DNA from: Candidatus Nomurabacteria bacterium
GTDB taxonomy: Bacteria; Patescibacteriota; Patescibacteriia; HK-STAS-PATE-3
Length of the DNA stretch: 64,000 nt
Direction of reading: 5' to 3'
Assembly (NCBI GenBank): GCA_023898465.1
Contig: CP060223.1
Span: forward strand, 32,001-96,000
Part shown: piece by piece, positions 1,552 to 61,814 of the stretch
Layout: the number at the start of each line of letters is the position of its first letter
Numbering within the stretch: position 1 is the stretch's first letter
Notes under the pieces: model-generated
Database searches by the model: none
Seen by the model: only the letters and a program-made list of their open reading frames with translations
What the model was told of the DNA's origin: nothing
Made by a program: the position numbers and the translations under genes

Positions 1552-1932
1552 ATGCCAGATCATGTACATATTTTGATTGAGCCAGGAGTACGCTATTCAA
1601 TTTCAAAAAGTATGTTTACGATAAAGAAGCAATTCGCACATGAGGCTAACCGTATGCTGGGTTGGAATGACAAGAGAATAATAAATTTCTCCTCCGCAGG
1701 CGAACAAACGTTTGTTCGCCTGCGGGAGTTTGTAAATTTACATCATCCTAGCTATGGGCAGAAATTTCATTGGCAAAAATCCTTCCATGATCACGTCATC
1801 CGTGACCAAAGGGATTTCAATCACCACGTGAATTATCTACACCTCAACCCGGTGAAAGATGGATTGGTGAAGAAACCCGAAGACTGGCCTTATTCATGCT
1901 ATGACGCTTTTTTGAAAGGCGATTTACTTTGA
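1552..1932 (+). mobile_element. IS200/IS605-family HUH (Y1) transposase TnpA / RAYT-like; the N-terminus appears truncated
   Basis: HUH motif YVIMPDHVHILIEP and C-terminal YLHLNPVKDGLV...DWPYSCY are typical of IS200-like TnpA. Similarity extends upstream of the Met in frame (KLKEFKLYAYVI), but that frame closes at a TAG at 1465 with no ATG, so about 40 N-terminal residues are missing. Confidence 0.6.
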
Positions 1933-9447: not shown

Positions 9448-9909
9448 TTACCTTTGACTCCGAGCAATTGCTACCGCAAAAATGGCCACCACCGTAAACA
9501 GCGAGAGCAGCATCCAATATCCTAAGCGTTTGCTAATGCTGCCAGCTTGGGTGGATTGTGCGTGATGTAATTGTACGGTGATCACTTGTCCGGCCAGGAC
9601 AGCCTCCATGACGATCAAGCCCATTTTTATGAGAAAGGTGGGAGAGCTCAAGGCCTTAGAGAGATAGGGAATAACTAAGGCGATTCCGCTGAGAATTGTT
9701 ATTCCTGCGATGAAAAAACCTAAGCGTCGAGTTTGTACTAAACGATCTAGTCTCTCTGCACTCAAATTTCGCGGCATGGCCAGGATAACGGTGAAGAACA
9801 CCACACCAAGTAAAAGTCCGGCACCAATGATATGAATAATAACTAGGAGAGTATGTAACATATTGAAACCTAAGAATGAGACGCGTATAGTATAAGGGTG
9901 CTTTTGCAT
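9448..9909 (-). CDS. hypothetical polytopic membrane protein (about 4 TM helices); start uncertain
   Basis: Hydrophobic segments LLVIIHIIGAGLLLGVVFFTVILA, FFIAGITILSGIALVIPYL and WMLLSLFTVVAIFAVAIA. Possible starts at 9942, 9909 and 9861. Confidence 0.5.
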   Translation of the reverse strand: MQKHPYTIRVSFLGFNMLHTLLVIIHIIGAGLLLGVVFFTVILAMPRNLSAERLDRLVQTRRLGFFIAGITILSGIALVIPYLSKALSSPTFLIKMGLIVMEAVLAGQVITVQLHHAQSTQAGSISKRLGYWMLLSLFTVVAIFAVAIARSQR

Positions 9910-15497: not shown

Positions 15498-16487
15498 ATG
15501 AATATAATACTAGATTCGAATGTGCTGAAGGATAATTATTATCTCAATACACCGAGATTTCAAGCCCTGTTTAGCTATCTAAAAAAAACAAAATCAGAGT
15601 GTTTCATTCCTGAAATAGTAATTTTAGAAACGATAAAAAATTATAAAAGAGATACTGAAGAATACAACAGTATTGTTGATTCCCTAAAGAAGACTAATAG
15701 AGTTTTAGGTCTTAATGGTCCGAACCTTGAAATTAATATGAGCGATATTGTAAATAAGTATGAGCGAAGTATTTATAAAATAATAAAAAAAGTTGGAATA
15801 AAACTAATTCCGACTAAAGACTTGTCAATTTCAATTGATTCAGTTATTTCTCGATCGTTAAATGATATCCCGCCATTTTATAGATCAGGTAGATCAAGTG
15901 ATGTAGGATTTCGAGACTATATAGTTTGGGAGACTGTAAAATTTGTTAATAAAGACTTCGAAGGTAATCTGTGCTTTATATCGAACGATAAAAAAGCATT
16001 CGGACAAAGTTGTGAGTTATTTAGTAGATTAAAAAATGAATCCAACGTTCACTTTTATAACCTATTGGATGAGTTTTTAAATGAATATGCAGAAAAAATT
16101 AATTTTATTAGTGAAGAATACTTGGAGGACTACTTTCGTGAAGTTTTAGAAGATGAAATCCCTAATGTGGTGACTCTTAGCGAGCTACTAGCGACGAAAC
16201 CTGAGAATGAATATATAGATCCTTCTGACATAACTGACTATGAGTTTGATGAAATATCTATTTTGGATTTTTACGTTTATAATGCGACAACAAAATACTA
16301 TTACGTTTTCGTAAGGACAGACTTAATAGTAAGAGCTTATTATCTAAATAGATTAATGCTAGCGGCCGGACTTGATGATGAAGTATCTTCCGATTATTCT
16401 TTTTTAAGGTTCAAGAAATCCTTTTTACTAAGAATTGATAGAAGAACTAAAAGACCAGATCGTTTTCAAAATCATACTAGCAATTAA
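15498..16487 (+). CDS. PIN-like domain protein, 329 aa, in an AT-rich island
   Basis: N-terminus MNIILDSNVL...FIPEIVILET fits a PIN-type acidic core. The remainder is unrecognised. Composition is strongly AT-rich and K/N/I/Y-rich relative to its neighbours. Confidence 0.5.
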   Translation: MNIILDSNVLKDNYYLNTPRFQALFSYLKKTKSECFIPEIVILETIKNYKRDTEEYNSIVDSLKKTNRVLGLNGPNLEINMSDIVNKYERSIYKIIKKVGIKLIPTKDLSISIDSVISRSLNDIPPFYRSGRSSDVGFRDYIVWETVKFVNKDFEGNLCFISNDKKAFGQSCELFSRLKNESNVHFYNLLDEFLNEYAEKINFISEEYLEDYFREVLEDEIPNVVTLSELLATKPENEYIDPSDITDYEFDEISILDFYVYNATTKYYYVFVRTDLIVRAYYLNRLMLAAGLDDEVSSDYSFLRFKKSFLLRIDRRTKRPDRFQNHTSN

Positions 16488-16744
16488 ACTTCTAAGTCCG
16501 CTTGGAAAAACTAGATTTATTTTAAATTATCAACAACCTTATCTATTACGGCCCTTCTTTTCGCTTGCCCATCCAGAGGTCAATAAGGTTTTTCGCATAC
16601 TTAGGTCAAGTTGTCTCACTAACGGGGAGTTTTTTAATGCTTCTTTCATGCTGCGAATGGCAAATAGTATAGCAAATACAATATTGACCAGTACGTTTTT
16701 CTCTGGTATTCTTCCGAGCTGTAACTGAACTTGCACAATAGCGT

Positions 16745-16820
16745 GGTGGCTATAGCACAGTGGTTAGTGCACCGGGTTGTGGTCCCGGTGACATGGGTTC
16801 GAATCCCATTAGCCACCCCA
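16745..16820 (+). tRNA. tRNA-His (anticodon GUG) with encoded G-1 and CCA
   Basis: G-GUGGCUA-UA-GCAC-AGUGGUUA-GUGC-A-CCGGG-UUGUGGU-CCCGG-UGAC-AUGGG-UUCGAAU-CCCAU-UAGCCAC-C-CCA. Confidence 0.85.
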
Positions 16821-16845
16821 GTGTTGTGCAGGTGATGCGAAGACT

Positions 16846-17799
16846 TTATTCGTCTTCGTCTTTTTCATCCCTCCGCCGGCCATGAAAGGCTTTGTACACT
16901 TCACGTAGCTGCGCATTAGTAACGTGGGTGTATATTTGCGTGGTCGTAATAGAGGAGTGGCCGAGCAATTCCTGCACAGAGCGAATATCAGCACCATTCA
17001 TTAGCAGGTCAGTAGCAAAGCTGTGCCGCAGGGTATGCGGTGTAATCTTTTTCGTAATCCCGGCAATCGCGGCGTAGCGCTGCACCATCCGTTGGATAGA
17101 GCGGGGCGTAAGTGGACTGACTTCCTCGCCTTGTATCTCATCACTTTTTCCAGCAGCTCGATCATGTCGGACAAACAGCGCATCGTTGCCGTCGCGCCGC
17201 ATCTGCAGGTAGTGTCGGATCGCCTGCTTCGCTTGTTCAGAAATAAATACCAGTCGGACTTTGCCGCCTTTACCCTTGACCGAGAATTCATCCTTTTCCA
17301 GGTTGAGACTGTTGCGCTGCAGTTTCGCTAACTCGGAAATACGTAATCCCGTTGAGAAGAGTGTTTCGAGAATTGCTCGGTCGCGTTGCTTCACGATGTC
17401 GCTGCTTGGACTTTTATATGGAGCTTGCAAGAGTTGCTCCAAATCCTCTGAATCAAGGAAGTTGACAGAGCGCTGCGACTGTTTCATTAGCTCAATTTTT
17501 TCTGGAGCTAGTGAAGCAATATCGTGTCGCGATAGATATTTCAAAAATGAACGCAGGGCAATGAGGTGGTAGTTTTGCGTTGAGGCTTTAAGAGTTTCAC
17601 TATCTTTACCGAGCAGGCGATTCAACTTCAAACGAAAAGAGCGCACATTCGCCTCGGTAATATCCTTAGGAGTTTTTACTCCGCTCAGCTCAAAAAAGCG
17701 CGTGAGATAAAAATCATAATTGCGGACAGTGAGTTGACTCCGTCCACGCTCGATTTCGAGATACTCAAGAAATTCAGTTTTTAGCTTTTGCAGATCCAC
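16846..17799 (-). CDS. tyrosine site-specific recombinase, XerC/XerD family
   Basis: 317 aa with an N-terminal SAM-like domain (LEYLEIERGRSQLTVRNY) and a C-terminal catalytic domain (HTLRHSFATDLLMNGADIRSVQELLGHSSITTTQIYTHV). Confidence 0.85.
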   Translation of the reverse strand: MDLQKLKTEFLEYLEIERGRSQLTVRNYDFYLTRFFELSGVKTPKDITEANVRSFRLKLNRLLGKDSETLKASTQNYHLIALRSFLKYLSRHDIASLAPEKIELMKQSQRSVNFLDSEDLEQLLQAPYKSPSSDIVKQRDRAILETLFSTGLRISELAKLQRNSLNLEKDEFSVKGKGGKVRLVFISEQAKQAIRHYLQMRRDGNDALFVRHDRAAGKSDEIQGEEVSPLTPRSIQRMVQRYAAIAGITKKITPHTLRHSFATDLLMNGADIRSVQELLGHSSITTTQIYTHVTNAQLREVYKAFHGRRRDEKDEDE

Positions 17800-21460: not shown

Positions 21461-22813
21461 ATGATGTGGGAACGGATCAAGCGTTTCTTCGCCGGCGAGG
21501 TGGAGGACGCGCTAGGTGAGCTTGGTGGCGAAAGTGTGAATGTCATCACAGCGTTCCTGGAAACGGTCTGGTGCGTAGCCTCGGTCTTTTACCAGACTGA
21601 GGTCAGAGTGTTGAAGCGTGGGCTTCCTTGGTTGATTGTTTGGTTGACCACTTGGGCCATGACGACAATAGTAGCCTGGGTTTGCAACAACTTCTTTTGG
21701 CACCGACCTTGGTTGTCGTCAGTAATTGGTCTTGCCTCGACTCTCTTCGCCTTATTCGTCTTTATCTATGGAGGGAGAATTCTCTTCATATTAGCGGTGG
21801 CGAAGGGGATCACGACCATGAGGCTCTCGAGGTGGAAGCCCTGGGAGATAAATGTGCTCATGGAAGATCTCCGTCGGGGCATGGATGGAACGCTCGACGG
21901 GTATTTCTACTTTCTCCGGATTCTGAGTTGGGTGGCAATTGGTGAGCTCTTGTTCTTCATCTATGGGAACATCTTCCCAATGTGGAACAATTACGCCGTG
22001 ATGCCGCTTTTCTTTTCCACCCTTCTTGTGTTCATACTTCTGTCGAAGAAGCTGAGCACGGGCGCGGAGAAGGCGGCTCGGATGCAGCAGGTGCAGCAGG
22101 TGATGCTCGTCATCGCCGTTCTGTGTTCGGGGAGCTTCCTGGCGCCGGGACCTTTCCAGCGCTTTGGAGCAATGCTCACGAGCCTACAGACCAAGGCAGC
22201 CTCTGACACCTGGTTCCCAGTGTCGGCGCTCTTGATCGTCTTCATCACTCTTGCGGTGTACGGCAGCAAGTCCTTGCTCAAGTACACGCAGTGGTTGATG
22301 ATCGGCTTGGCGTCGTCGTACATCGGCTACGTGGCCATCTCCGCAGTCTGGATCAAGCACAACACTCCGCTCGTGCCGACGGTTTTCCTAGGTACGGTCG
22401 CTCTGGTGCTGGTGCTGGCGGCAATCGGACTCACGATGCCGAAGTCGACTGACGGGTCCGGTAAGCGGATGGCTCTTGGTGTTGGTCTGGCTGGATTGAC
22501 TTGCGCCTGCCTCCTCCTCTTCTACGGGGGGAGTCAGGACGGACAGTATCTGGATCCGGTCTCGGGTGCCGCGAAGGTTTTCGTGGCAACTGATCCGGTG
22601 ACAGAGACCCAGATCGGCGTTCGCGGACCAAAGGCGGCGACGTACACGGTTGATCCCGAGTACGGACAGCCCTTCGTTGCCTGGACCTCTCTCACCAGAG
22701 AGGAGCAGGACAAGTTCCGCAAGAACCCGAAGTGGATCGATGAGGTCAAGCTGGAAGGCTTGGGTCTCACGAACAGTAACGCGACCTACACACTGAAAGG
22801 AGGCACACCGTAA
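21461..22813 (+). CDS. hypothetical polytopic membrane protein (about 8-10 TM helices plus C-terminal soluble domain); gene 3
   Basis: Multiple 20-aa hydrophobic stretches. SD aggagg upstream of the ATG. Confidence 0.6.
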   Translation: MMWERIKRFFAGEVEDALGELGGESVNVITAFLETVWCVASVFYQTEVRVLKRGLPWLIVWLTTWAMTTIVAWVCNNFFWHRPWLSSVIGLASTLFALFVFIYGGRILFILAVAKGITTMRLSRWKPWEINVLMEDLRRGMDGTLDGYFYFLRILSWVAIGELLFFIYGNIFPMWNNYAVMPLFFSTLLVFILLSKKLSTGAEKAARMQQVQQVMLVIAVLCSGSFLAPGPFQRFGAMLTSLQTKAASDTWFPVSALLIVFITLAVYGSKSLLKYTQWLMIGLASSYIGYVAISAVWIKHNTPLVPTVFLGTVALVLVLAAIGLTMPKSTDGSGKRMALGVGLAGLTCACLLLFYGGSQDGQYLDPVSGAAKVFVATDPVTETQIGVRGPKAATYTVDPEYGQPFVAWTSLTREEQDKFRKNPKWIDEVKLEGLGLTNSNATYTLKGGTP

Positions 22814-23757
22814 TGGTGTCGATCCTCGATATCTATGTGCTTTTCGCCGTCTTCATGCTGGTGTTTCTCAACTTCCGGCGTGGAGACTGGACGCGGGGTA
22901 TCGCAGCGGTGATCTTCGGCGCTTTGGGTGTCGGCTTCCTCGTCGGGATGATCAAGTCTTTCCCGCTGCAAGTGGGAATGCTGGAGCCTCCGCTTCGCAC
23001 CTGGTCGACTGCAGGCACGGTGGAAATCGTGTTCCGCCTGGCGATCACGTTCGGCCTGATCTATTGGCTTGTGTACATGATCAGGGTAAAGAAGTGGACG
23101 CTGCGACCTGTTGTCTTGGGGATTGCGGTCCTCATGGCACTGGGCTTCGATACTGGCATGATGCTGCGACCGTACTATACGGACAGTCTCGCGCCGGTCG
23201 TCGAGGTAGCAGCAGCTGATTCACTCGAAACGAACTACGAGTCCTTGACTCTGGTCGCACGTGCGAATCAGCGAGAGAATCGGGTGCGTTCGGTTCAGAA
23301 GGGCGATCTCGTCATCTGCCGCTTCGTAGGAGAGCCTGACAAGTTCTGCTACCGAGCGCTCAAGAGCACTCCGTACTATCGGGGCGCTCGAGAGGTGCAG
23401 TTGGTCGGCTCCTATCAGGATCCTACCCAGCACTCGGTTCGTGACTACATCAACGCGACGGACTACAGCTTCCTGCTTCCGCCGTCGCGCATCAGCGCTC
23501 GACGAATCCCCACCAGCCTCAACTTCATCGGTGTCTGCGGCTATGCCCCGGCACCTCTGCAAGATGAGGTGGCAAGCTTCGTGGTACGGGAGTCAGGGGA
23601 TTTGTACATCGGGTATAACACCCGAGCCTACAATATGCCTTTGACTCGCTTCGCTACCTTCAACTTCGGCTACTGGCACGCACCCATGAATCCTCCTACG
23701 GTGAATGGGGAACGTGTCTTTCAGGTCACGGTCATTCCTGCTGGAGAGTGGGGATGA
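22813..23757 (+). CDS. hypothetical membrane protein (4 N-terminal TM helices plus about 180-aa C-terminal domain); gene 4
   Basis: ATG overlaps the gene-3 stop (gtaATGg). Ends at a strong terminator. Confidence 0.6.
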   Translation: MVSILDIYVLFAVFMLVFLNFRRGDWTRGIAAVIFGALGVGFLVGMIKSFPLQVGMLEPPLRTWSTAGTVEIVFRLAITFGLIYWLVYMIRVKKWTLRPVVLGIAVLMALGFDTGMMLRPYYTDSLAPVVEVAAADSLETNYESLTLVARANQRENRVRSVQKGDLVICRFVGEPDKFCYRALKSTPYYRGAREVQLVGSYQDPTQHSVRDYINATDYSFLLPPSRISARRIPTSLNFIGVCGYAPAPLQDEVASFVVRESGDLYIGYNTRAYNMPLTRFATFNFGYWHAPMNPPTVNGERVFQVTVIPAGEWG

Positions 23758-57093: not shown

Positions 57094-58314
57094 ATGAAGT
57101 TTAGCTATATTGCTTTTCTCTCAACACAAAATTTGCGCAAACGTAAGCTGCGTAGCTTTTTGACAATTGGAGGTATGGCAATCGGTATCAGCTCAATTGT
57201 TTTCTTGGTTTCGCTTGGTTTTGGCTTACAGCGCCTCATTACCTCACAGGTAACTAATCTGGAAGCGCTTACCATACTTGATGTAAGTACCGGCACCTCA
57301 ACCTTGCTACAAATTGATGATGATCGCATTGCTGGCTTTAAAGAGATTCCTCACGTGCTTGATGTAAGTCCCTCGTACAGTATTTCTGGTCAGGTAGCCT
57401 ATACCGGGTCAGTCACTGATATTGCCATGTTTGGCATTCAACCGGAGTATGTAGGGCTAGAAGGTATAACACCGGCTTTTGGTCGAGTTTTTTCAATCCC
57501 TGATGGCAATGAAACAGTTATTAGCACTACGGCAGCTGAATTGCTTGGTGTTGAGGACTTTGCTTCTTTAATTGGCAAAACAGTTACGTATAGCGTTTCA
57601 GTAGAGCAAACGACTGATGAGAATGGCGCACCACTTGATCCAAATCTACCCCCACCGGCCCCTGAAGTAGTTGATTTTGATGTGGAGGTCATTGGAGTCG
57701 TGGATGATGAATTAACTCTAGCGTATTTACCTATTAGCATCTTGGAAATTACGCAACCAGAAAATTATGATTTAGCGCGCGTAAAAGTAGATAATAGAGA
57801 TAATCTGGTCGGTGTCCGCCAAGAAATTGAAGGGCTAGGGTATCAAGTTGATTCAGTGGCTGATACTGTTGGTCAGATTGATCGTATCTTCCTGGTCTTT
57901 GAAATAGTCATGGCTGGATTTGGCTTTATTGCCATGTTGGTCGCATCCTTGGGCGCATTTAACACCTTAACCGTTTCTTTACTTGAACGTACGCGTGAAG
58001 TAGGAATCATGAAGGCGTTAGGCACACCGAGTAAGGATGTGTACCGACTTTTCTTGAGCGAGTCATTTTTGATTGGATTTTCAGGTGGAAGCTTGGGAAT
58101 ATTAATAGGATATTCCTTAGGTGAAATTGCCAACGTGGTAGTAAATTATTTGGCGAATCGTTATGGTGGTCAATCAGTTGATATTTTCTTCACTCCATTT
58201 TTGCTCATTGTTGTCATTTTCTCAATTATCGTGTTGGTGAGTTTCTTGACTGGTGTTTATCCTGCTCGTCGTGCGTCTAAACTCAATCCTTTGGACGCTC
58301 TGCGCTACGAATAA
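57094..58314 (+). CDS. ABC transporter permease, FtsX-like (MacB-type: N-terminal TM, periplasmic domain, three C-terminal TM helices)
   Basis: LRSFLTIGGMAIGISSIVFLVSLG N-terminal TM and a C-terminal FtsX domain (...RTREVGIMKALGTPSKDVYRLFLSESFLIGF...). The ATG is 4 nt after the ATPase stop. Confidence 0.85.
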   Translation: MKFSYIAFLSTQNLRKRKLRSFLTIGGMAIGISSIVFLVSLGFGLQRLITSQVTNLEALTILDVSTGTSTLLQIDDDRIAGFKEIPHVLDVSPSYSISGQVAYTGSVTDIAMFGIQPEYVGLEGITPAFGRVFSIPDGNETVISTTAAELLGVEDFASLIGKTVTYSVSVEQTTDENGAPLDPNLPPPAPEVVDFDVEVIGVVDDELTLAYLPISILEITQPENYDLARVKVDNRDNLVGVRQEIEGLGYQVDSVADTVGQIDRIFLVFEIVMAGFGFIAMLVASLGAFNTLTVSLLERTREVGIMKALGTPSKDVYRLFLSESFLIGFSGGSLGILIGYSLGEIANVVVNYLANRYGGQSVDIFFTPFLLIVVIFSIIVLVSFLTGVYPARRASKLNPLDALRYE

Positions 58315-58333
58315 TTTTTCCAAAAACGAATAA

Positions 58334-58368
58334 ACGAAAACGGACGCATGTAATTGCTTCCGTTTTCG
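58334..58368. terminator. bidirectional rho-independent terminator (10-bp stem cgaaaacgga/tccgttttcg)
   Basis: cgaaaacggacgcatgtaattgcttccgttttcg, with flanking A-run and T-run. Confidence 0.6.
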
Positions 58369-58379
58369 TATCTATCAGG

Positions 58380-58490
58380 TTAGGCGTTCTCGCCACCAGC
58401 CTCACCCATATCAGCGTCACCAGCGTTTTCTTCTGTGGTTTCGCCACCTTCCATTGGAGTCTGGTTCTCTTCTCCGTCGAATTTGAACAT
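58380..58490 (-). CDS. 36-aa highly acidic Gly/Glu/Asp-rich peptide
   Basis: Perfect SD aaaggaggtgattgc before the ATG on the minus strand. Product is MFKFDGEENQTPMEGGETTEENAGDADMGEAGGENA. Terminates into the bidirectional terminator. Confidence 0.4.
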   Translation of the reverse strand: MFKFDGEENQTPMEGGETTEENAGDADMGEAGGENA

Positions 58491-58660
58491 GCAATCACCT
58501 CCTTTCAATTGATGTGATTTCACGTAGGGTCTAGTGTACGTGTCTGAGAACGTATTGTCTAGACTCTGTCAACCCCATACCACATTGGGTATAGGGTTGT
58601 ATCGCGCACCGATTCTGGTGCGAGGTCAACCCTTCGCGAGTGAACAAAAAAGACTTTCTG

Positions 58661-59761
58661 CTAAATTACTAGGTTTTTTGGCTTTTGTCGGAGAAAAGAA
58701 AGAATGTTATCTATCGTCGTATCAGCGATGCGCTGAATTGCCTCGGTTGTGTTATATGCATTATGAGGTGTGTAGAGCACATTTGGATGTCGAATCAACT
58801 CAGCATTCATCTGAGCAATTCGTGCTTCTTGTTTATTTGCAGGCTTCCAGGATGGTTTCAACACACTCGCTTCATCTTCTAGTACATCCAATCCTGCTCC
58901 GGCAATACTTCCATTTTTTATACCGCGATACAGTGCTTCAGTTTCGATGAGTTCTCCGCGAGCAGTGTTAATCAGGTACATACCTTTTTTACATTGGCTG
59001 AGATTTTTCTTATTTAAAATGTGATGCGTGCTTGGGAAATATGGCGCATGTACAGTGAGCACGTCAGATTTTTTAACTAAGCTGCTGAGGTTAGCATATT
59101 GAAAGCCTAATTCTTTTGCCAGTTGTGCGTTACGTTTAGGATCATAGGCGAGCACCTTCATACCGAAACCTAAGCCCATGCGAATTGCATGTTGGCCAAT
59201 GCGACCAGCGCCGACAACGCCAAGTGTTTTACCACGCAAGTCTATACCACGTAAATCATCGCGAGAACAATTTCCATCCTGAATGCGGCAATATGTCGGA
59301 TGAATTTTTCTCGTCATGCTTAACAACAAAGCAAAAGCCATCTCCGCCACTGTGTTTTCGCCGTAACTTGGCACGTTGGCTACCTTTACACCCCTCTCTT
59401 TGAGTAACGTGCTTTCACAATGATCATAACCAGTTGATCGAGTGGCAATATATTTAACATTCGGAAATTGCTTAAGCAGCGCTTCATCAATCGGTGTGGT
59501 GATAAAAACAGATAGCACAGTAGTTTTTTCACCGATTGCACGCTGTGACGGAGGCAAAGTTACCTGCTTGAGAAACGAAGCAGGCGTTGCACGGAACTTG
59601 GAACGAAAATAATTTAACTCCCAATCATCACAGCCTAGAAAAGTCGTGTGCTGATTTAAATTCTTTTTACGCGTTGAGATTTTTTTCACAAAATAAGTAT
59701 AGCAACCGAGTTGACATGCGTATACATCTCTTGTGGATAACTTGGTTGTCCACTGACTCAA
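58661..59761 (-). CDS. D-isomer-specific 2-hydroxyacid dehydrogenase (D-lactate dehydrogenase-like)
   Basis: NAD-binding GVVGAGRIGQ; catalytic region NTARGELIETEALYRGI...AGLDVLEDE; N-terminal substrate-domain VKYIATRSTGYDH. Confidence 0.85.
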   Translation of the reverse strand: MSQWTTKLSTRDVYACQLGCYTYFVKKISTRKKNLNQHTTFLGCDDWELNYFRSKFRATPASFLKQVTLPPSQRAIGEKTTVLSVFITTPIDEALLKQFPNVKYIATRSTGYDHCESTLLKERGVKVANVPSYGENTVAEMAFALLLSMTRKIHPTYCRIQDGNCSRDDLRGIDLRGKTLGVVGAGRIGQHAIRMGLGFGMKVLAYDPKRNAQLAKELGFQYANLSSLVKKSDVLTVHAPYFPSTHHILNKKNLSQCKKGMYLINTARGELIETEALYRGIKNGSIAGAGLDVLEDEASVLKPSWKPANKQEARIAQMNAELIRHPNVLYTPHNAYNTTEAIQRIADTTIDNILSFLRQKPKNLVI

Positions 59762-59856
59762 TACCTTCTAGGATGGAGACATGCAACGCACGGGGGGACT
59801 GTGCGTGTTTGGAACGTTGACATGCTATAAGGATGTTGATCCGGGAGTGAAGAGTC

Positions 59857-60957
59857 ATGGGAAACGTACTCGTGGTTGGGACGGGAACGATCGGCAAGCC
59901 GCTCATCGGTTTGCTCACCAAGAGAATGGAAGGTCTTGGTATCAGTCAGGTTGCTTTTCACAAGCGGACTCCGCAAGCCGATACCACGCCTTCGATTCGT
60001 CGACTAGTTGATCGTGGTGCGCTCTTGGTCTGTGATGAAGAGGCGAGGGATGATTTCCATCGCTATGGCCTGGAGCCGCAGATGACGCGCGATGAGGCGT
60101 TAGCCTGGGCTGACGTGGTGATAGACTGCACGCCAGCCGGCAACGCACACAAGACTGGTCGAGCGGTGAACAAGAAGGGTGTGGTGGTTGAGTGCCCACC
60201 CTGGTATCCAGCCCACGAAGACAGTACCCTCGGCTTCATCGCCCAGGGTTCAGAAGAGGGCTTTGGCCAGCCTTTTGCGTTGGACATCAACAACGAACAG
60301 GTTGATCCGAACGCACACAAGTACGTCCAGGTTGTGTCGTGTAACACGCATAACCTCCTCGTGCTACTTGATCTCTTCGGGAAGCTCGGAGTGGGCAGGA
60401 TCAAGGGTCGTTTCGTGATGATTCGCCGCGCGACGGACATCAGTCAACCGGACAATGTTTCTGCTCCCAAGGTCGATAAGCACAAGGAGCTTCGGGGCGA
60501 TCGACACTTCGGTACACACCACGCCTACGATGCTTGGCGGGTTCTTCAGACCATGGGCGTTGATTACGACCTGTTTTCTTCAGCACTGCAGACACCGACC
60601 CAGTACATGCATGTCTTGCATTTCTTCCTCGAGGTTGAGCGTCCACCGAGTCATGAAGAAATCATCGCAGCAATTCGCGAGCGTCCTCTCGTGGCAACTA
60701 CTGAGTACTGCAACACGGGACAGGCCTTCTCGGAAGCGCGCGACGACGGGTTCTACGGTCGAGTACTCGACCAGACGGTCATTCCAGTGAAGACCTTGGT
60801 AGTGAACGGGAATGAGATCACTGGTTTCGCGTTCACTCCGCAGGACGGCAACAGTCTGCTCTCAACCGCAGCGGCGGCTGCACGCTTCCTCGATCCAGTT
60901 GGTTGGAGAGATCGGATCACTAACTGTTTCGGGAAGTACATGTTCGACGAGGTCTGA
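59857..60957 (+). CDS. archaeal-type (type II) glyceraldehyde-3-phosphate dehydrogenase-like enzyme
   Basis: MGNVLVVGTGTIGKPL NAD-binding start. Active-site region YVQVVSCNTHNL resembles the type II GAPDH VVSCNTTGL motif. 366 aa. The gene is visibly GC-richer than its flanks. Confidence 0.6.
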   Translation: MGNVLVVGTGTIGKPLIGLLTKRMEGLGISQVAFHKRTPQADTTPSIRRLVDRGALLVCDEEARDDFHRYGLEPQMTRDEALAWADVVIDCTPAGNAHKTGRAVNKKGVVVECPPWYPAHEDSTLGFIAQGSEEGFGQPFALDINNEQVDPNAHKYVQVVSCNTHNLLVLLDLFGKLGVGRIKGRFVMIRRATDISQPDNVSAPKVDKHKELRGDRHFGTHHAYDAWRVLQTMGVDYDLFSSALQTPTQYMHVLHFFLEVERPPSHEEIIAAIRERPLVATTEYCNTGQAFSEARDDGFYGRVLDQTVIPVKTLVVNGNEITGFAFTPQDGNSLLSTAAAAARFLDPVGWRDRITNCFGKYMFDEV

Positions 60958-61002
60958 TCAAGCACACTGTTCATTCACGTCCCGCCTCAAGTGAGGATCA
61001 CT

Positions 61003-61536
61003 ATGATCCAAAATCAAGAGGCGGGACTTTTTCTTTTCTTCAAGATTGGGGAGTGCTATGATATAGCTACCATGCATATTAGTTTAAACTTGCCACAATT
61101 CCGTCGTCAGCGCGCACTATTTATCGTGACCGATAAGGAACACGCGAAGTTTTTTGAAGTTTCCAATGGTGAGATTAACGAGCTGGAAGAGATGGCAATT
61201 CATCCTGACCCGAGTGAAGGTAGATTAGCCAGCGGCGGTCGTCGTAAAAAAATTCCCCGCAAAGGTAGGCTTGTTAAGTCACCACTCGGCCAAGAGGGGC
61301 TTTATTATCAGTTTGCCAAAAAAGTAAGTCAGGGCGGTTTAGCTTTGGAAAAAAAGCGGCCCTATAAAGCGATTTATCTTTTTGCGCCACATCACTACCG
61401 ACATGAATTACTTGATCGCCTGCATGCCTATGTGACCAAAAAAATCGCCCACGTGATTGATGGCGACTATATTCATGAACATCCAGTGGAATTACTGCAT
61501 CGTGTTCGTTCAATTGCAAAACTGGATGGAGTATAA
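61003..61536 (+). CDS. hypothetical protein; weak resemblance to host-attachment-protein/baeRF-like release-factor-fold families
   Basis: Pattern RALFIVTDKEHAKFFEVSNGEINELEEM...KAIYLFAPHHYRHELLDRLHAYVTKKIAHVIDGDYIHEHPVELLHRV. This is judgment-based similarity only. Confidence 0.4.
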   Translation: MIQNQEAGLFLFFKIGECYDIATMHISLNLPQFRRQRALFIVTDKEHAKFFEVSNGEINELEEMAIHPDPSEGRLASGGRRKKIPRKGRLVKSPLGQEGLYYQFAKKVSQGGLALEKKRPYKAIYLFAPHHYRHELLDRLHAYVTKKIAHVIDGDYIHEHPVELLHRVRSIAKLDGV

Positions 61537-61814
61537 GTAGTTTTGTATTGGGAAGGAGCTACACAATTAAATGAAATAATGTTGTAGTATTTCGTAAAAT
61601 CTTGCGAATTATTTTTTTATTTGCGCGTTTTTTTATATGTAATGAGTTTTGTGTGAATATTTTTTTGCGTACATTATGTAAAAAATATTTTATGTGTTGT
61701 TGTGTACAAATGTAATTTGTTGTATATTTTGTGTACAATGTACTTGACAAGATTTCGGATGACTTTTTTAATGAGAGTATATTGAATACATCGCACATGA
61801 AAGGGGGTGGCGAT

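Follow-up and report, generated by a model that had tools for sequence, protein, structure and literature searches.

The stretch of DNA analyzed here (hereafter, the window) comprises 64,000 nucleotides of the genome of Candidatus Nomurabacteria bacterium (1,082,586 bp), and it carries, on the forward strand at 59857–60957, a gene for a 366-residue protein identical to GenBank entry USN53616.1, 'hypothetical protein H6760_00375'. Our analysis indicates that this product is probably a phosphorylating glyceraldehyde-3-phosphate dehydrogenase (GAPDH). Judging from its sequence, it is a member of a distinct, unnamed and mostly bacterial family, sister to the archaeal type II GAPDHs. The gene is real, since it has full-length homologs at 89–54% identity and the AlphaFold2 model of its product reaches a mean pLDDT (the per-residue confidence score) of 90.9. 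It is also long-resident in a small sub-lineage of the candidate phyla radiation (CPR; Patescibacteria), not a recent foreign import.

The initial annotation of this region had placed the gene at 59762–60957. The end of that span is right, but its start is not: the ATG start codon lies 95 nt further on, at 59857, with a GGGAG motif some 10 nt upstream, while 59762 is simply the base that follows the longest possible open reading frame (ORF) of the divergent neighbor, out of frame with the GAPDH-like gene. The two motifs reported in the translated ORF are indeed present, GTGTIGK as residues 8–14 and VVSCNT as residues 159–164. A scan of positions 58200–61700 for promoters and terminators returned sites no more numerous than in shuffled sequence. 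An Rfam scan returned three tRNAs and nothing else.

The first line of evidence for the enzyme family comes from profile and structure comparisons. Among NCBIfam models, the best match of the product was type II GAPDH (NF003251; 82.7 bits against a cut-off of 185), with a second type II model, TIGR01546, at 58.4 bits (cut-off 232.9). The type I model (TIGR01534), by comparison, scored 13.6 bits against a cut-off of 367, and the active-site motif reads VVSCNTHN, not SCTTNC; the protein is thus not a bacterial type I enzyme, as had been proposed. No aspartate-semialdehyde dehydrogenase model was matched in the NCBIfam scan, let alone as the best hit, and in Pfam the Gp_dh_C domain stayed slightly under threshold (24.1 bits), as did the NAD domain of semialdehyde dehydrogenases under its own cut-off (15.6 bits). 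Type I GAPDH and aspartate-semialdehyde dehydrogenase were both ruled out as identities by the profiles together with the fold. A sequence search of the PDB yielded four archaeal GAPDH structures as the sole strong matches (1cf2, 2czc, 2yyy and 1b7g), which a profile of the family recovered at E = 1e-23 to 5e-18, and the product has the three-dimensional fold of type II GAPDH. The proposal of a type II GAPDH therefore holds insofar as this is the nearest known family, but not in the sense of a bona fide archaeal type II enzyme, because the scores fall far below the curated cut-offs and the protein sits in a separate sister clade.

The second line of evidence is the conservation of individual residues. 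Aligned with the GAPDH of Methanothermus fervidus, the product retains the cysteine of the SCNT motif, a histidine at the type II position, the Arg-Arg pair of (V/I)RRxxD and the His-His pair at the position of SHHxxD. The relevant features are as follows:

59857–60957, forward strand: type II-like GAPDH gene, ATG start, 366 aa
59878–59898, forward strand: glycine loop GTGTIGK, residues 8–14; G8, G10 and G13 invariant in the family and in type II GAPDH
59959–59973, forward strand: HKRTP, residues 35–39, at the end of strand β-2; Lys36 aligned with M. fervidus Lys33, no acidic residue
60154–60195, forward strand: 14-residue insertion T100–C113, delimited by the alignment of family sequences
60331–60354, forward strand: active-site motif VVSCNTHN, residues 159–166; Cys162 aligned with the catalytic Cys140 of M. 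fervidus GAPDH
60424–60429, forward strand: Arg190-Arg191, presumed phosphate-binding pair; aligned with M. fervidus Arg167-Arg168, both invariant in the family alignment
60517–60522, forward strand: His221-His222 in GTHHAYD; aligned with His193-His194 in SHHGPD of type II GAPDH
60610–60612, forward strand: His252 in TQYMH; aligned with M. fervidus His219, the type II catalytic base

Throughout the family, C162, H252, R190/R191, H221/H222, K36 and D194 (aligned with M. fervidus D171) are invariant or almost so, with histidine at position 252 in 47 of 50 sequences. The insertion T100–C113 is length-variable and found in most sequences of the CPR clade, although absent from two of them (P0005 and P0006) and from the core of the family; in the AlphaFold2 model it forms a small β-hairpin with a pLDDT of about 90–95. 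The catalytic and phosphate-binding roles of the M. fervidus residues are those of the published archaeal structures, and Lys33 of that enzyme is reported to bind the 2'-phosphate of the cofactor. On this basis, the N-terminal Rossmann domain would bind NAD(P)+ through the GTGTIG loop, and the combination of Lys36 with the lack of an acidic residue after strand β-2 suggests NADP(H) or dual cofactor use. With His252 as the base, Cys162 would attack the aldehyde group of glyceraldehyde-3-phosphate; after transfer of hydride to the cofactor, cleavage of the thioester by phosphate would release 1,3-bisphosphoglycerate, the substrate of phosphoglycerate kinase. Arg190/Arg191 and His221/His222 would hold the two phosphates. 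We infer the substrate, the cofactor and the direction of flux of what would be a reversible reaction.

To place the protein among its relatives, we examined its homologs across sequence collections. They fall into two groups. The closer one consists of ten proteins (P0001–P0010) with 89–52% identity, which belong to Patescibacteria wherever source or context is readable. The second, very large group shares 44–50% identity over 99% of the length, has 350–360 residues and spans six or more phyla; its members are named 'hypothetical protein' by NCBI and 'GAPDH (NAD(P))' or 'type II' by JGI. In a scan that took a single genome for each GTDB species, at least 585 carry the family, all of them metagenome bins. 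Among the matches listed, the bacterial carriers include Krumholzibacteriota, Marinimicrobia/Fidelibacterota, Myxococcota, Acidobacteriota (Thermoanaerobaculia and Polarisedimenticolia), Gemmatimonadales, Eisenbacteria, Entotheonella, Desulfomonilales and Acidimicrobiia, and the archaeal ones are two Thermoplasmatota. An exhaustive phmmer search of 1.84 billion representatives returned 546 clusters at E ≤ 1e-3, 79 of them at E ≤ 1e-30. Of the sequence clusters that make up the family, at least 5870 in number, about 10 belong to the CPR clade. Membership was defined by signature motifs together with full-length similarity of at least 45% to core members, and the product has both; the motifs, all present in it, are GTGTIGxP, DCTP, AQGSE, QVVSCNTHN, RRxxDxSQ, GTHHAxDA, TQYMH, FSxxRDxGxxGR and FTPQDGNSLLS. 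Ten members with 48% down to 26% identity reached no more than 91 bits against the type II model, if they matched it at all, and the family therefore does not grade into canonical type II GAPDH.

Some database labels in this set look wrong. One metagenome-assembled genome is labeled 'Fibrobacter sp.' (locus L046), with a protein about 84% identical to Krumholzibacteria copies; Fibrobacter was accordingly rejected as a cultured carrier, and no cultured organism turned up. Likewise, loci L013 and L014 are labeled 'uncultured Gammaproteobacteria', yet L013 is syntenic with the Patescibacteria window, and L014 is a duplicate of L003, itself Patescibacteria-like.

A neighbor-joining tree was built from family members and ten canonical archaeal enzymes (Sulfolobus, Pyrococcus, Methanocaldococcus, Methanobacteriales and Methanomicrobiales), with E. 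coli GapA as the outgroup. By this rough method, and with narrow archaeal sampling, the canonical type II clade (bootstrap 88) and the family (bootstrap 89) emerged as separate sisters. The product was not nested within the canonical archaeal enzymes; the four closest CPR sequences grouped together (bootstrap 74), and the Thermoplasmatota copies were nested among bacterial ones.

The genomic context of those two archaeal copies bears directly on function. In both Thermoplasmatota genomes (L070, 4863–7056; L058, 2640–4826), the family gene lies 16 bp downstream of pgk on the same strand (Pfam PGK, 363 and 354 bits), and the order NTP-transferase, PGK, GAPDH-like protein is kept even though these proteins are only 75–79% identical between the two genomes. 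As PGK consumes the product of a phosphorylating GAPDH, the arrangement amounts to the classic gap-pgk pairing. The GAPDH-like gene, perhaps with the whole pgk pair, may have been transferred between domains. The protein encoded by pgk shares about 32% identity with E. coli Pgk, and L070 also carries a gene for a tRNA-intron endonuclease.

Within the CPR lineage, the product is 82% identical to its ortholog in the closest syntenic relative (L001), whereas the syntenic neighbors are 72%, 67% and 54% identical. With four-fold degenerate sites saturated between the two genomes, this difference indicates stronger purifying selection on the GAPDH-like gene than on its neighbors. In CPR bacteria, triosephosphate isomerase, GAPDH and PGK make up a core that is essentially universal (PMC7304191), and a core glycolytic role can be argued because these bacteria have very little other metabolism. 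More tentatively, we propose that the family represents a third, mostly bacterial class of phosphorylating GAPDH that has replaced type I and serves as the sole GAPDH in this CPR lineage as well as in many uncultured phyla—an extension to which we give less than an even chance. A tblastn search for type I GapA over 1.13 Mb of locus DNA gave no match, a result that is uninformative on whole genomes. If the proposal is correct, lower glycolysis would be called 'incomplete' in these organisms by the NCBI pipeline, where the protein is named 'hypothetical', and the GC-rich codon usage that the gene keeps throughout the CPR clade would stem from selection of an unusual kind, specific to this gene.

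Several observations weigh against a phosphorylating GAPDH. The product fails the curated cut-offs of both type II models (185 and 232.9 bits), and so do the ten other family members scored, with 25–91 bits or no match. Close to the active site, the family has residues of its own (SCNT-H-N, AQGSE and TPQDGN, where type II enzymes read SCNT-T-G, FQGGE and HQESD, respectively), which could conceivably go with a shifted substrate specificity. All family matches examined come from metagenome bins and none is characterized; a literature search, too, found no characterized member. Neither pgk, tpi, eno nor any other glycolytic gene adjoins the gene in the window, in its CPR relatives or at the other 78 loci. 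Clustering of the neighbors at 80 loci revealed lineage-specific synteny only, with no partner conserved between phyla: a PP-loop ATPase, a phosphoribosyltransferase and FtsH recur in Marinimicrobia, and TPR and SpoIIE proteins in Krumholzibacteria. Finally, the sole bacterial type II GAPDH assayed, a canonical one from Pseudoclostridium thermosuccinogenes, had no activity, and the authors of that study describe type II GAPDH in bacteria as lacking functional evidence (PMC6543838).

The best-placed of the other explanations is that the protein is a second GAPDH alongside an ordinary type I enzyme, linked to NADPH and mainly anabolic or redox-balancing, in the manner of the archaeal anabolic GAPDH or of Bacillus GapB. 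Lys36 and an HKRTP loop devoid of acidic residues match the archaeal NADP-preferring pattern, and archaeal GAPDHs have been described as anabolic and NADP-linked (PMC12525153). Moreover, type I GAPDH is near-universal in CPR bacteria (PMC7304191), and the family also occurs in organisms with large genomes (Entotheonella, Myxococcota and Acidobacteriota) that, by inference, very probably have a type I enzyme as well. Two GAPDHs would be unusual in a genome of 1.08 Mb, however, and the gene is more constrained than its neighbors; the Thermoplasmatota copies occupy the classic place beside pgk, although this position would suit a main or a secondary GAPDH equally. We regard a second GAPDH as a possible but rather unlikely solution.

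A same-fold dehydrogenase acting on another substrate—erythrose-4-phosphate, aspartate semialdehyde, another acyl-phosphate or a non-phosphorylated aldehyde—appears improbable. It would account for the sub-threshold scores of all GAPDH models, for the family-specific substitutions beside the catalytic cysteine and in the C-terminal motif, and for the lack of glycolytic neighbors outside Thermoplasmatota. Against it stand the conserved type II catalytic and phosphate-site residues and the pgk linkage in two archaeal genomes, both of which are as expected of a phosphorylating GAPDH.

The initial annotation had read the base composition of the gene as a sign of lateral acquisition. The underlying observation is correct: at 55.9% GC, and with a GC content at third codon positions (GC3) of 0.632, the GAPDH-like gene is richer in GC than both the flanking D-lactate dehydrogenase (D-LDH)-like gene (42.3%, GC3 0.373) and the downstream gene (43.8%, GC3 0.401). 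Its GC3 also exceeds the pooled value of the five nearest genes (0.362; chi-square 87.8, p = 7e-21). Compared with all 39 other ORFs of the window (mean GC3 0.476, standard deviation 0.095), however, the gene ranks third and lies only 1.6 standard deviations above the mean, an effect of the uneven composition of the window, whose genes span 30% to 57% GC. Codons ending in C and in G are both enriched, which resembles a general compositional shift. Translational selection as the cause of the excess is doubtful, given that the G-ending codons of Lys, Glu and Gln are enriched as much as C-ending ones. A simple form of it also fits poorly because the HU and HSP20 genes, usually highly expressed, are poor in GC3. 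The highest GC3 of the window (0.72 and 0.70) belongs to two adjacent genes for polytopic membrane proteins with no Pfam match (21461–22813 and 22813–23757, forward strand), whose codon signature, with C/(C+T) of 0.67–0.73 and G/(A+G) of 0.81–0.88, is like that of the GAPDH-like gene.

The comparison with relatives bears on how this excess should be read. The gene is present in all CPR relatives, in part of them at the same locus, and in each it is the GC3-richest of its neighborhood:

L001: GC3 of the gene 0.76, flanking genes 0.42–0.63
L003 (same genome as L014): GC3 of the gene 0.83, flanking genes 0.47–0.72
L006: GC3 of the gene 0.71, flanking mean 0.40
L007: GC3 of the gene 0.72, flanking mean 0.55

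Relatives that all carry the gene with the same composition had been named in the initial annotation itself as the pattern that would speak against acquisition. In addition, four-fold degenerate sites are 34% identical between the window and L001, compared with 28% expected from composition; they are saturated, and any donor signature predating the split of the two should therefore have been erased. Thus, the GC excess is no scar of recent transfer; it is a feature that the gene has kept throughout the lineage. A recently acquired foreign island with a donor signature would fit the local GC3 contrast, the enrichment of both C- and G-ending codons and the small share of the CPR clade in the family. 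It is nevertheless very improbable, given the presence of the same gene at the same locus in the closest relative, the same or larger GC3 excess in all five CPR genomes (0.71–0.83 against flank means of 0.40–0.55), the saturated four-fold sites, the lack of mobile-element genes flanking the GAPDH-like gene, and the copies outside the CPR, which match the GC content of their hosts from 32% to 66%. Least probable of all is an inactive or moonlighting GAPDH-like protein, for which the inactive bacterial type II enzyme (PMC6543838) would be a precedent, since the catalytic and phosphate-binding residues are all conserved over a very wide phylogenetic span and purifying selection is strong.

What we envisage is vertical inheritance within a small CPR sub-lineage that probably received the gene once, long ago, from another bacterial phylum. 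Vertical inheritance is supported by three observations. The L001 locus (82% identity) shares with the window, in order, a giant surface protein, an ABC ATPase, an FtsX permease, a small acidic ORF, the GAPDH-like gene and a baeRF/Host_attach gene; the loci L003, L006 and L007 (68–54% identity) share HSP20, a small ORF and the gene; and most CPR copies have the insertion at a common site. An old transfer into this narrow sub-lineage is plausible from the distribution of the family across phyla, not from composition. At L006, a giant DUF2341 protein is encoded upstream of the gene. At L003 (11333–15679) and L007 (11743–16098), the gene on its 3' side encodes a protein of about 1450 residues with BcrAD_BadFG and DUF2229 domains that resembles a fusion of the activator with a component of 2-hydroxyacyl-CoA dehydratase; this gene is relatively rich in GC3 and absent from the window.

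The immediate neighbors of the GAPDH-like gene in the window are the following:

58380–58490, reverse strand: small acidic ORF of 36 aa (MFKFDGEENQTPMEGGE...), orthologous to an acidic ORF of 51 aa at 9568–9723 (reverse strand) of L001
58661–59689, reverse strand: D-LDH-like D-2-hydroxyacid dehydrogenase, 342 aa from a GTG at 59689; the longest ORF extends to 59761
61003–61536, forward strand: Host_attach/baeRF (release-factor-like) gene, PF10116 at 34.7 bits; also downstream in L001

The divergent neighbor is a D-LDH-like D-2-hydroxyacid dehydrogenase, as initially described. Both Pfam domains of D-isomer-specific 2-hydroxyacid dehydrogenases are present (2-Hacid_dh_C, 182 bits) and the top eight PDB matches are D-LDHs or close kin (3kb6, E = 1.4e-63), with every NCBIfam subfamily model under its cut-off; the GTG at 59689 is the likely start, and the 342-residue protein is also called in independent assemblies. 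The further idea that this gene and the GAPDH-like gene form a fermentative module, assembled partly from foreign parts, finds no support, as the CPR relatives do not keep the two genes together. Where the window has this gene, in the slot bounded by the small acidic ORF and the GAPDH-like gene, L001 contains neither a 2-hydroxyacid dehydrogenase nor a remnant of one. The gene is also absent at the loci of L003, L006 and L007, and we found it only in this genome and in near-identical assemblies. It is therefore best described as a variable element; its GC content (42%) is like that of the local flanks. The small acidic ORF lies between the FtsX and GAPDH-like genes and forms the conserved left edge of the slot, with a 26-bp stretch around its start that is 96% identical between the window and L001. 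A functional link, in which the dehydrogenase re-oxidizes the reduced cofactor of the GAPDH, could exist and is biochemically sensible, but conservation does not support it.

Elsewhere in the window, a PIN-domain gene of 30% GC (15498–16487) adjoins tRNA-His (16746–16820) and a gene of the XerC/phage-integrase type (16846–17799), and the region 15498–17799 resembles a mobile element that has inserted next to a tRNA gene. A truncated fragment of an IS200-like (Y1_Tnp) transposase gene (1552–1932, forward strand) lies near the genes for tRNA-Lys and tRNA-Arg. Finally, about 32 kb (23883–56318, forward strand) are taken up by co-oriented genes for giant surface proteins (NHL/FG-GAP, DUF2341, LamG, fn3 and Pur_ac_phosph_N domains), arranged as repeated paralogous units whose C-terminal halves are richer in GC and have a strongly negative GC skew.

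In textbooks, GAPDH exemplifies a deep division into an archaeal class and one shared by bacteria and eukaryotes. A large, strongly conserved sister family living mainly in uncultured bacteria, and found also beside pgk in marine Thermoplasmatota, blurs this division. It also exposes an annotation gap, with NCBI naming the proteins 'hypothetical' and KEGG-style pipelines silently counting them as archaeal GAPDH. If the family provided the sole GAPDH of its hosts, the metabolic reconstructions of several candidate phyla would depend on an enzyme known only by its sequence. For the window itself, the meaning is more modest: a long-resident gene of the housekeeping type.

Compared with known systems, the closest likeness is to archaeal type II GAPDH (EC 1.2.1.59), which shares with the product the SCNT cysteine, the histidine in LMH/YMH at the type II position rather than that of type I, the RR and HH pairs, the lysine after strand β-2 that suggests NADP use, and a similar length. 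Identity to the product, however, is about 25%, and the archaeal motifs NGYGTIGKR, FQGGE, SCNTTG and HQESDxVPE contrast with GTGTIGxP, AQGSE, SCNTHN and TPQDGNSLLS in the family; His165 of VVSCNTHN is peculiar to the family, with threonine at that place in type II. The hosts of the family are, in addition, mostly bacterial, and it is known from sequence alone. With type I GAPDH (TIGR01534; E. coli GapA), the family shares the superfamily and presumably the reaction, and the type I gene gap often lies beside pgk, as does the family gene in Thermoplasmatota. Aspartate-semialdehyde dehydrogenase and ArgC share the superfamily fold and a cysteine-thioester chemistry on an acyl-phosphate. The protein CDQ83_07070 of P. 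thermosuccinogenes is likewise an 'archaeal-like' GAPDH homolog of putative function in a bacterium. It is annotated as 'type II GAPDH', whereas the window protein is named only 'hypothetical protein'; and while CDQ83_07070 is reported as not conserved among close relatives and had no activity (PMC6543838), the family described here is broad, strongly conserved and placed outside canonical type II.

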